A stretch of 64,000 bases of DNA from Bradymonadia bacterium (GTDB lineage: Bacteria; Myxococcota_A; Bradymonadia; UBA7976; UBA1532). The translations under genes were made by a program, and so were the position numbers. Numbering within the stretch: position 1 is the first letter of the stretch; each line of letters opens with the position of its first letter. Positions 18,254 through 49,409 of this stretch are shown one piece after another. The stretch lies in contig JBKAGE010000078.1 of assembly GCA_046290225.1 (NCBI GenBank), positions 416,001-480,000 of the forward strand, read 5' to 3'. A model generated the notes under the pieces. That model worked only from the letters and a program-made list of their open reading frames with translations, was not told the origin of the DNA and searched no databases.

Positions 18254-18255
18254 AG

Positions 18256-18286
18256 AAAAGCCCCTGGTTTTCCAGGGGCTTTTTTT
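18256..18286 (+). terminator. Rho-independent terminator after tRNA-Gly (bidirectional-looking)
   Basis: AAAAGCCCCTGG-TTTT-CCAGGGGCTTTTTTT. Confidence 0.9.
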
Positions 18287-18550
18287 ATTCCGTGCTCTGA
18301 ATTTCCATTCCTATCCAATCAGCCTCTCCCCTGCGTGCTCCATACCTCACGCTTTCAACCCTCCCGACTCAAATTGAGCCCGGCCCACAATGAGCCAGAT
18401 CTGGCAGATGATGATGTGCAGCTGCACAGACTTCAGAGTTGCCGACGTGTTTGGTGTGTATCCTGGCGAGACAGTGTCTCAGACATCTGTTAAAGACGTT
18501 CGATACACTGCATATTTCAGATGTGCCCCATATTGAGAGGGTACGTCGGC

Positions 18551-18580
18551 AAGAGGCCCTCAAGAGATGGCGGGCCTCTT
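18551..18580 (-). terminator. Hairpin directly after the metzincin stop codon
   Basis: AAGAGGCCC...GGGCCTCTT inverted repeat; U-tract weak. Confidence 0.4.
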
Positions 18581-47700: not shown

Positions 47701-48223
47701 CGACAGCTGCACCTTCGGCGACCGCGTCACCACCGGCATCTTCGTGAGCCTCGACGCGCGCTGCGACATCGGCGAAGACACTGCCATCTACGACGGGGTC
47801 GTCCTTGGCGCCGATGCAACGATCGGTGCCCGCGGCATCGTCTTGTTCCGGACCAACATCGGCGCCCGAGCCAACATCGGCAACGACACCATCGTCGACG
47901 CGCAGATCACCATCGGCACCGACTTCAGCCTGGGCAACAACAGTCGTCTGTGGCCCCGCTCGACCTACGGCAACACCGTCACCATCGGCAACAACGTGCT
48001 GATTCGCGACACCGCCGACGTAGGCGACGACGTCACCATCGAAGACGACGTCATCATCTTCCCCAGCACCACCATCGGCGACGACGCTACGATCCGCCAG
48101 GGTGTGGGCATTGGCGTAGCAAACTGCAGCAACCGTGTTTGCGGTCAGGTCACCATCGGCGAGTGCGCCGATGTCGACGCCGATATGTCCCCCCGCAGCA
48201 ACCGAGAGAGCGCCTGCAACTGA
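44750..48223 (+). CDS. Secreted protein with FN3/PKD/Ig domains, thrombospondin type 3-like repeat and long C-terminal hexapeptide (left-handed beta-helix) domain
   Basis: GTGA overlap; signal peptide; [34 protein letters not shown]; [IV]Gxxxx hexads from ~46970 to the end. Confidence 0.85.
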   Translation: [1157 protein letters not shown]

Positions 48224-48713
48224 TGCTCTCCAGCCGTCTCGGAGACGGTGTGCGTTGAGTCAGACGGCTGCCCAAGCCGCTTCAACACATCTGACATCCC
48301 ACCCCTATACAGAGCACAACACTCTTTCCCAGCCTGCATCTGCCATCCCACTTTCAGAGGGTGGGTGAGCATGGGCAACCATGCCCCAGTGCACGCACTC
48401 ACGGGCCTCATTTCCGGGGCGTGGAATGTGCACCACAGCGCTCTATGGCCTCTGATGAGCCCCAATTGTGCAGCTGTGCACGATTCACATGGACACATCC
48501 GTGTGACGTCGGCGCTCACACAGTGAAGCCGTACACACCTGAAAACAAAAGCCTTCTACACCAATCGGTGTGACTGAGCCCACATTCACCACAGCTCACC
48601 ACACGATATCCGGTTGCCTGAATGTGCATTCATTCACAACAATCCACCACAGCTCAGGGCGCCCGGCATGGGCATCCACAGCACACATCATCGTTCTCCA
48701 AAGGAGGCCCGAC

Positions 48714-49409
48714 ATGGCTGAAGTCATCACGCTCGGCACGCGACTGAAAGGCATCTTGAAGGAGCGTGGTCGCTCCCAGACCTGGCTCGCCGAGAAGACC
48801 GGCATCGATCGCAGCGAGATCAACCGCATCTTGAACGGCCGCAAGGCCCCCCGCGGGGAGCACCTGCGCTGGATGGCCACGGCCCTGGGCATGGACGTCG
48901 ATCAACTCGTGGGCGACGCTCAGATTCCCCAGGAGACCGTCCGCGAGGCCGAGCGTCTCCAGTCGGTCATGGAGAAGAAGCTGCTCGCCGAGAGCGAGCG
49001 GGACATCGCCCTCGCTCGGGTGAAGAGCCTCGAGGCTCAGCTCGAAGCCGAGACTCAGCGGCGCATCTCTGCGGAAGCAGAGTTGGAGACCATCAAGAGC
49101 GAGCAGGCCGAGACCACCGAGATCAACCGCAGCCTGCGCAACAGCATTGATGGCATGAAGGAAGCCCGCCAGAAGCTCGCCGGGTACGCTGAGCTGCTCA
49201 AGCAGCAGCGAGACAACGCTCAGGCGGCCCTCGACGAGGCCCGCAGCTGGATTCAGCGTCTGTCCGCCGAGCACTCCGCTCAGGAGAGCTGGAACACCTT
49301 CCTCGGCCGCTTCGATCGCTTCTTCAACACGTCGTTCTCTCAGAGCGGCAACGAAGACGCCGAGCCCACCGAAGACGAGCAGCTCAACGGCGCCGCCGCT
49401 CAGGGCTGA
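48714..49409 (+). CDS. XRE/Cro-family HTH regulator with long C-terminal coiled coil
   Basis: RBS AAGGAGG then ATG 48714; LGTRLKGILKERGRSQTWLAEKTGIDRSEINRILNG; heptad-rich remainder. Confidence 0.85.
   Translation: MAEVITLGTRLKGILKERGRSQTWLAEKTGIDRSEINRILNGRKAPRGEHLRWMATALGMDVDQLVGDAQIPQETVREAERLQSVMEKKLLAESERDIALARVKSLEAQLEAETQRRISAEAELETIKSEQAETTEINRSLRNSIDGMKEARQKLAGYAELLKQQRDNAQAALDEARSWIQRLSAEHSAQESWNTFLGRFDRFFNTSFSQSGNEDAEPTEDEQLNGAAAQG

Follow-up and report, generated by a model that had tools for sequence, protein, structure and literature searches.

In this work we analysed a four-gene operon of a Bradymonadia bacterium that encodes a conserved, apparently undescribed secreted-protein system, the function of which we infer from its sequence. 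The operon lies in a 64,000-nt stretch of contig JBKAGE010000078.1 (hereafter the window), and its genes are called g1 to g4 for short. Together they measure 28,638 bp on the + strand and encode products of 6849, 1305, 234 and 1157 aa. The g1 open reading frame (ORF) runs from a likely start at ATG 19586, preceded by a GGAGG site, to 40135, g2 from ATG 40135 (alternatively GTG 40132) to 44052, g3 from 44049 to 44753 and g4 from 44750 to 48223. Starts and stops overlap at the three junctions (GTGA(TG) at 40132, ATGA at 44049 and GTGA at 44750), which points to translational coupling. Each product begins with a hydrophobic stretch (19-residue Kyte-Doolittle maxima of 2.27, 1.45, 1.83 and 1.96, respectively) and an A-x-A-type cleavage site, judged by eye, and is thus predicted to carry a signal peptide. 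The first-pass annotation of this DNA had described four genes coupled by overlapping stop and start codons over 28.6 kb, with signal-type N-termini, and the ORF coordinates, junctions and hydropathy bear it out.

The operon sits in a block bounded on the left by tRNA-Gly(GCC) (18179..18253, + strand) and flanked on the right by nadB (49426-51042). The block also holds a divergent gene for a secreted metzincin-type metalloprotease with an HExxH motif (18579..19205, - strand) and a gene for an XRE-family helix-turn-helix protein with a coiled coil (48714..49409, + strand; probable start ATG 48714, not GTG 48570), and all four flanking features lie where the annotation had placed them. Within the 8.58-Mb genome g1 and g2 are single-copy; the overall and third-position guanine-plus-cytosine contents of g1 to g4 resemble those of housekeeping genes, and the content of the metzincin gene is lower. 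The first 421 residues of g2 matched none of 40 relatives. We compared the nadB region in six relatives of the same family, out of ten with a strong nadB match: tRNA-Gly lies on the nadB strand in all six, at a distance of about 125 bp or less in five and 4.5 kb in one, and in the window it is inverted and 31 kb away from nadB. Because g2 is missing from the 40 relatives and tRNA-Gly is close to nadB in relatives, we regard the block as accessory, in agreement with the annotation. Insertion at a tRNA 3' end and absence from relatives are traits of a genomic island; no attachment-site duplication was found, the tRNA-end repeats being merely two 12-mers inside genes, and there is no integrase among the genes of the block. 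Relative to nadB, the whole segment 17121-49409 (tRNA-Gly, an M23 peptidase gene and the block) is inverted when compared with all six relatives.

A fixed gene order in distant phyla

Among 8,000 candidates scored, 571 were homologues of g2 at E ≤ 1e-10, and the best 120 were nearly all full-length, with 47-55% identity. In GTDB genomes, 112 stretches with g2 were confirmed, and the genome-locus counts given here rest on the best 80 of these 112. The titles of the carriers name Verrucomicrobia most often, as well as Deltaproteobacteria/Desulfobacterales, Gammaproteobacteria, Myxococcota, Lentisphaerae, Planctomycetia, Acidobacteria and others, and some titles of metagenome-assembled genomes look mis-binned. 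Cultured carriers named in the records are Marinicellulosiphila megalodicopiae, Haloferula sargassicola, Desulfatibacillum alkenivorans and Fontisphaera persica.

At genome loci with enough flank, the end of g1 was present upstream of g2 in 73 of 73 cases (flank of at least 700 bp), g3 in 64 of 64 and g4 in 58 of 58. A reverse search of metagenomes with the g1 end gave 73 loci, where g2 followed in 62 of 66 cases, g3 in 53 of 53 and g4 in 41 of 41, and where 67 of 71 complete g1 ORFs contained a Hint domain. All four genes stood in fixed order at 55 of 55 informative genome loci, a count that is not one of independent trials, as the loci are mutually related, were picked by conserved bait patterns and are partly duplicated between the scans, and this tempers the interpretation preferred below. 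Co-occurrence across genomes had been set beforehand as the test of the annotation, and the outcome is a fixed order across phyla on which both search directions agree; the recurrence of the gene order is beyond chance. In viral contigs 53 pattern matches were obtained and none was confirmed.

The four-gene system is rare and patchy. Among 401 genomes from the phylum of the host, the start of g2 found a match in 6, two of which have the present subtype; among 401 from the class of a gammaproteobacterial carrier it did so in 8, one of which has it (the centre genome being included in each count). In a tree the window g2 groups with gammaproteobacterial and Desulfobacterota copies in a nine-member clade with a support of 0.96, a grouping that fits horizontal transfer. 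Several divergent g1 copies (L168, L169, L170 and L189) come from a single metagenome assembly; three of them are not followed by g2 to g4, one heads a full operon, and the extra g1 genes there may share one partner set.

The flanking features fared differently. Orthologues of the metzincin (29-40% identity) occur at 12 of 80 genome loci, 11 of them inside the operon, and at 4 of 73 metagenome loci, so that the protease, which the annotation had counted in, does belong with the system as an optional member. At five other loci an S8 protease, confirmed by Pfam in four, stands beside g4. The XRE gene had also been counted in, and this proposal had to be dropped, as the gene had no match in 169 fetched stretches nor elsewhere in the genome. 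The same applies to the g1 leader, whose two near-perfect hairpins (19464..19552, + strand) occur once in the genome. Its fold surpasses those of its shuffles (z of -4.41, with 0 of 100 shuffles as good); among 12 background regions of the window, one had a z of -3.9. Among eight orthologous upstream regions only one fell below -4, no sequence similarity was detected, and the leader is therefore a local feature; it has no Rfam match and is not a copy of the repeated hairpin elements of the genome.

Domain architecture of the four products

After its signal peptide, the g1 product (19586..40135) contains three units of about 1,220 aa with 30-44% mutual identity, each made of a right-handed beta-helix and Ig/fn3 domains, and then a fourth beta-helix block, a conserved Ig/fn3 stalk, an end module and the Hint domain. 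We reconstructed eight g1 orthologues, of which six are intact and measure 6,284 to 7,233+ aa, counted from the first start codon; the upstream neighbours differ at all eight loci. The N-terminal half is a swappable, putative binding half: it consists of beta-helices in the window and in the one gammaproteobacterial orthologue scanned, and of FG-GAP, LamG, C-type lectin, PA14 or LCCL domains in four Verrucomicrobia orthologues.

The end module (38729..39361, + strand) comprises a transthyretin-like domain, a beta-hairpin with the motif EQTFxTxVPxP and an Ig-like domain; the hairpin and the Ig domain are given our own label, TNVP. It is followed by a variable, hydrophobic helical segment (39362..39595, + strand) from Cys6593 to Cys6670 and by a Gly/Pro-rich linker. 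Both cysteines are present in 63 of 63 aligned sequences, and the segment between them is the least conserved part, with a mean identity of 22% versus 52% for the adjacent module. Its 19-residue Kyte-Doolittle value reaches at least 1.6 in 23 of 63 sequences; for the adjacent domains none of the 63 does so. The modelled g1 end has a predicted local distance difference test (pLDDT) score of 79 overall, with low confidence in the helical segment. An Atlas search with residues 6471-6699 gave no usable match. The hairpin module was barely probed by the fold search that matched the Hint.

The atypical Hint domain (39683..40081, + strand) matches PF07591 (E of 1e-12) and the fold of 2LWY (Z of 20.8, root-mean-square deviation of 1.2 over 128 residues). 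Its closest solved relative by sequence is an umbrella-toxin subunit (8W20, E of 7e-20), and this PDB sequence match is confined to the Hint. Cys6700 (C1), Thr6765, His6768 and Trp6777 are kept, Gln6830 occupies the position of the terminal Asn, Cys6832 stands two residues further, and the domain is followed by a 17-aa tail and no toxin domain. Among giant g1 homologues 66 of 80 have a Hint. We aligned 63 Hint sequences, i.e. the window and 62 of 69 candidate loci, with seven omitted as long-insert or redundant. The first Cys and the His are present in 63 of 63, Trp is invariant and Thr is present in 62 of 63. The terminal position is Asp in 42, Gln in 14, Glu in 4, His in 3 and never Asn; the +1 residue is Ser in 6 of 63 and otherwise Leu, Arg, Gln, Met, Lys or Glu, and the +2 residue is Cys in 63 of 63. 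No invariant acidic residue was found in the block-F region of this alignment. The metagenome Hints agree, with Asp in 35, Gln in 14, Glu in 9, His in 7 and Asn in 0 of 65, and with tails of 5-64 aa at 64 of 65 loci, the remaining one being a g1-g2 read-through. Of 29 other PT-HINT loci of the host's phylum, taken for comparison, 24 end in His-Asn, most with a tail of roughly 100 aa or longer.

In A-type bacterial intein-like (BIL) domains, C-terminal cleavage takes place via a conserved Asn (PMC7765530, in part), and in Hedgehog the catalytic Cys is locked in a disulfide with a second conserved Cys (C258-C400) until reduced (PMC3051819, in part). In the structural alignment, which bears out the register, Gln6830 coincides with the terminal residue of the intein, and the Hint (319-451) runs along Hedgehog 258-402. 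The residue pattern indicates that selection kept the N-terminal chemistry of the Hint and dropped the C-terminal chemistry, and g1 would probably remove its own C-terminus through this domain. By analogy, the +2 Cys could act as a Hedgehog-like disulfide partner of the catalytic Cys. A natural g1-Hint-g2 fusion (L055 and L200) was rejected as one read-through or assembly error, the two sequences being identical, with a low-complexity junction and a retained signal peptide. In two further loci (L215 and L231) g1 is frameshifted.

The g2 product (40135..44052, + strand) begins, after its signal peptide, with a strongly conserved mature start (QQFQGxC in the window; a QQ/AQ-x-(F/Y)-x-G-x-C pattern in 76 loci). 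Residues 21-440 form three Ig-like beta-sandwiches in a model with a pLDDT of 89; they have no Pfam match and no PDB sequence match, and fold searches gave generic Ig-like matches alone (best Z of 8.1) and, in the Atlas, unnamed clusters. A FlgD-Ig domain, beta-propeller repeats (TIGR04275) and a C-terminal module that recurs on some g4 tails complete the protein.

The g3 product (44049..44753, + strand) has a secreted tandem rhodanese fold with YGDG at the active-site loop. It contains no Cys after residue 14, i.e. past the signal peptide, and the YGDG-type loop is found across 65 aligned sequences, indicating a rhodanese fold without the catalytic cysteine.

The g4 product (44750..48223, + strand) consists of a conserved head of about 270 aa, PKD, Ig and TSP3 domains and a 413-aa left-handed beta-helix tail (46982-48220). 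Its tails fall into lineage-specific classes. In three genomes a module of the Verrucomicrobia tail was matched 80, 33 and 5 times, and in two further genomes not at all. Other tails carry dockerin-like repeats, a choice-of-anchor U domain scoring above cut-off or a duplicate of the g2 C-terminal module, or they end in a transmembrane-like stretch. Some orthologous g4 tails thus look like sorting or anchor modules. The annotation had seen no recognisable anchor. This holds insofar as g1 to g4 have no match to RTX, autotransporter or transporter families, only partial internal matches far under the cut-off to the MYXO-CTERM family, which is defined by a C-terminal Cys motif, a transmembrane helix and an Arg cluster (10.1101/2023.06.07.544157, in part), and no C-terminal transmembrane-like stretch; it is too strong for g4, whose tail is host-specific and anchor-like in some orthologues. 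The tail module of the window was found in 48 ORFs or fragments of its own genome, 37 of them at E ≤ 1e-40; none of 40 relatives gave a match at that threshold. Its copies lie at C35:168103-200282 (nine, near-tandem), on C36, C44, C74, C77, C81 and C82 and on other contigs, mostly in secreted mosaics such as RCC1 propeller-TSP3-beta-helix-fibrinogen-like proteins. The family resembles lineage-specific trimeric fibre adhesins. A secretin near one such gene on C57 belongs to a Tad pilus locus.

Fused relatives and RHS-linked sister operons

The g1 end module is common to all three operon types that we encountered. Among 72 long proteins with a g2 start, 51 hold TNVP, a Cys-rich segment and the g2 start in one chain, 19 have the g2 start at the N-terminus, and none has a Hint. 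Such fused forms include cyanobacterial, Thermococcus and mollusc proteins. The mollusc proteins (Gigantopelta, Haliotis and Mytilus; P0154, P0172, P0179 and P0180) measure 3,500-4,200 aa and combine the TNVP-Cys-rich-g2-start module with beta-helix, SRCR, TIG and EGF domains, and tandem copies occur in P0285 and P0293.

At 12 further loci (10 genome stretches and two plasmids), a distant g2 start opens a gene. RHS genes are present at 6 of these sister loci, a transglutaminase-like gene at 8, a rhodanese at 5, a TNVP-ending giant at 6 and a Hint at none. At Hint-type loci, RHS and transglutaminase-like genes were each found at 1 of 80 genome and 0 of 73 metagenome loci. The sister loci L082, L083, L109-L122 and L128 show the arrangement of a TNVP-ending giant, RHS with a variable tip, a g2-like gene, a transglutaminase-like gene and a rhodanese, and the type is possibly an undescribed RHS presentation system. 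The sister copy on the Eleftheria plasmid adjoins a full type II secretion system (T2SS). A dedicated T2SS beside the operon was considered and discarded, as it is seen only at this sister locus and is absent from Hint-type loci.

In a tree of g2 starts the Hint type is monophyletic (24 of 24 sampled, support of 1.0) and the N-terminal/RHS type forms a separate clade (31 of 31, support of 0.81). The shared core has no Pfam model and comprises 2,973 clusters at 50% identity. The window locus is thus a single branch of a wider, unnamed family, in which the module of g1 end and g2 start is the constant part.

A putative surface scaffold and its alternatives

We favour, with about even confidence, a reading in which the operon encodes a secreted, surface-tethered multi-subunit scaffold for adhesion or capture, a horizontally transferred cassette with an optional protease that would be matured by self-cleavage. 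It draws on the conserved gene order, the natural fusion of g1 end and g2 start, the swapped N-terminal half, the retained Hint residues and the host-specific g4 tails. The proposal of the annotation, an extracellular filament, adhesin or sheath that is co-assembled and has Hint autoprocessing, is supported in part, with co-assembly, a filament or sheath form and Hint processing as putative features. All subunits, with their signal-like N-termini, would cross the inner membrane by Sec and leave through a machine of the host, here probably a T2SS encoded elsewhere. The absence of a transporter gene, remarked in the annotation, is true for the block, but the host does encode a T2SS operon on another contig (C34:257-274 kb), named partly from BLAST to three annotated plasmid proteins and partly from pseudopilin motifs. 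No transporter family recurs upstream or downstream of Hint-type loci. The g1 product would then form a long stalk with its N-terminal half as an exchangeable binding array, and its conserved end would dock on the first g2 domains, non-covalently or by disulfide, which would restore what the fused relatives hold as one chain. Once a Cys6700-Cys6832 disulfide is reduced, the Hint would cut at Gly6699/Cys6700, by the chemistry of Hint families and Hedgehog, and remove itself as a cap, leaving the hydrophobic Cys-bounded segment as the new g1 end. Through its host-specific tail g4 may link the complex to the envelope or the export route, g3 may serve as a non-catalytic chaperone or adaptor, and the protease may trim or free the complex.

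Several observations speak against this scaffold. In metagenomes, four copies of g1 (L168, L169, L171 and L189) are not followed by g2, and g1 is interrupted in two of the eight reconstructed genomes, by insertions in a Thiohalocapsa genome and by one stop codon in a Desulfospira genome (L087/L088 and L091/L092). In L185 and L210 the four-gene operon is intact and g1 ends after the linker without a Hint; as these two nest in different clades, the Hint is dispensable. The +2 Cys also occurs in 6 of the 29 control PT-HINT toxins, so it need not be a redox switch. For one g4 tail class a single match was found in each of two host genomes, and multiple copies were not seen. The g4 beta-helix of the window is weakened as a candidate C-terminal anchor, and looks rather stalk-like, because the module is internal in most host paralogues.

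In a wider form, which we hold more tentatively and with confidence short of even, the locus may belong to a hitherto unrecognised family, found across phyla, of secreted surface machines made of several proteins, with a common docking module (g1 end, g2 start and pseudo-rhodanese) and interchangeable payloads. One branch would carry RHS toxins, the fused branch, which reaches molluscs, would carry nothing cleavable, and the present one would carry a redox-gated Hint that might unmask a membrane-active tip or covalently join the stalk to a partner or the envelope, as a bacterial counterpart of Hedgehog autoprocessing.

The Cys-bounded segment could also be read as a weapon, the operon then being an antagonism device of an RHS-free branch of a toxin-delivery family, in which the segment is a membrane-active tip on a lectin-bearing stalk and the Hint a safety cap lost on contact. 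The low conservation of the segment and its hydrophobicity in 23 of 63 sequences are consistent with such a tip, as are the RHS genes at 6 of 12 sister loci with the same g1 end module, g2 start and rhodanese, and the umbrella-toxin origin of the nearest solved Hint. We consider it unlikely all the same, as no toxin domain lies past the Hint, no variable immunity-like gene recurs in the operon, and closely related pairs share similar segments without abrupt tip swaps. Moreover, comparable Cys-rich helical segments stand mid-chain in the fused relatives, molluscs included, where they cannot be a free tip.

Somewhat more doubtful is a Hint that acts as a ligase, by passing its thioester to g2, to a lipid or glycan as in Hedgehog, or to its own Cys-bearing tail in an atypical splicing, so that a covalent g1-g2 or g1-envelope link would replace the gene fusion. 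The Hint is located exactly where the fused relatives run on into g2, none of the 51 fused forms has one, and the mature g2 start is highly conserved. The Hint-less split sister operons have a transglutaminase-like gene in 8 of 12 cases versus 1 of 80 Hint-type loci, and the Hint-less L185, L210 and P0215 still end in linker, Cys and short tail, resembling a spliced product. However, the two intact operons without a Hint have no detected transglutaminase either, a +1 nucleophile is found in just 6 of 63 Hints, block F has no invariant acidic residue, and at one locus (L006) a Hint and a transglutaminase-like gene occur together.

The right-handed beta-helix fold includes pectate lyases. The many such blocks in g1, with lectin-type domains in orthologues, might suggest a surface scaffold that captures and degrades polysaccharides, the beta-helices being lyases or glycosidases. 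This is improbable, since no lyase or hydrolase family was matched, sugar transport or enzyme genes are not recurrent nearby, and the four Verrucomicrobia orthologues exchange the beta-helix half for binding domains that are not catalytic, yet retain the remainder of the operon. That the products are merely co-regulated and physically independent, as the four orphan g1 copies might suggest, is very improbable given an order and coupling near-invariant across phyla and the natural fusion of g1 end and g2 start.

The gene set fits none of the known systems that we tested; its parts are folds already known, and its way of working is probably that of described adhesins or secreted particles. Full-text searches (subscription journals and supplements being outside their scope) found no description of the gene set or of the sister type, and PMC13274458, in the part seen, was a chance co-mention only. 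The view of the annotation that no characterised system has this gene set thus stands for the systems compared and the literature searched.

The Streptomyces umbrella particles (UmbA-C; PMC11062931, in part) are similar in that several separately secreted proteins form one particle round a large repeat protein, as the present products would, in their lectin-type variable domains and in the use of a degenerate enzyme fold as structural partner (trypsin in Umb, rhodanese here). In contrast, the present set has no ALF repeats, no trypsin-like or UmbB-like subunit and no toxin or immunity gene; its binding domains lie inside the giant chain, its hosts are diderm, and homology is limited to the Hint. 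Polymorphic PT-HINT/RHS toxins exported by Sec/T2SS (PMC3482391, in part) share the signal peptide, the long stalk and a terminal PT-HINT-class domain, and the sister type has RHS with variable tips. They differ in that the Hint here lacks His-Asn and a toxin, the four genes are conserved, and the gene directly downstream of the Hint is g2 (73/73 and 62/66 loci), not an immunity gene. The word "rhodanese" is absent from the searched part of that paper (300,000 of 357,715 characters).

Hedgehog Hint (PMC3051819, in part) and B-type BIL domains (PMC7765530, in part) likewise have the chemistry for cleavage at the N-terminus, lack the C-terminal motif of inteins and possess another conserved Cys near the Hint end. 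The Hedgehog-type residues are present (Cys1 in 63/63, block-B Thr in 62/63 and block-B His in 63/63), and the invariant +2 Cys takes approximately the place of the second Hedgehog Cys, two residues later, by alignment position only. Unlike Hedgehog, the tail here is short (about 20 aa), variable and without a sterol-recognition region, and the sequence is PT-HINT/A-type-like. Class 1 inteins differ by a terminal Asn (or Gln/Asp) with Cys, Ser or Thr at +1, in the place of which a Cys is found here at +2.

Giant adhesins such as LapA/LapG, RTX proteins and two-partner exoproteins have a very long Ig/beta-helix stalk, swappable binding domains and a releasing protease. The g1 product resembles these single-chain adhesins in its long stalk and swappable domains, with an associated protease that may have a releasing role, but it lacks RTX repeats, a type I secretion system and a TpsB partner, and has instead a Sec signal, a multi-subunit operon and a putative self-cleaving domain. 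Type V secretion finds no counterpart either, as g1 to g4 contain no C-terminal beta-barrel and no TpsB partner gene is nearby. True homologues of g1 end and g2 start are found in the unnamed fused CARDB/Calx-beta giants (e.g. WP_044523664.1 of Nostoc sp. PCC 7120), which hold both in one chain without a Hint, and in the sister operon type of the Methylomonas koyamae and Eleftheria terrae plasmids, which is split and has RHS and transglutaminase-like genes. No functional study of either was found.

With these data, anonymous giant genes become one defined, testable system with cultured carriers. An answer on the shared core would annotate many proteins (the 2,973 clusters without a Pfam model), and the sister branch suggests a mode of RHS-toxin presentation that is apparently undescribed. 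As for the Hint branch, it would be a natural case of a secreted bacterial Hint retained solely for its N-terminal chemistry, and identifying its acceptor would bear on the origin of Hedgehog-type processing.

Elsewhere in the window, a c-di-GMP-I (cyclic di-GMP) riboswitch (3586-3660, + strand; RF01051, 57.5 bits) precedes a Lon-like gene at 4132. A cluster of the XrtA/PEP-CTERM-associated type for exopolysaccharide export (11762-17258; sugar transferase, chain-length determinant and Wza-like genes) is found at the same place in two of six relatives. Beyond nadB, a protein in which acidic double-disulfide repeats (NF033662) occur at least five times is encoded at 52600-54519, beside tRNA-Met, and a TraB-like OmpA/TSP3 protein, below the TraB cut-off, is followed by a second OmpA-domain protein at 58132-61520.

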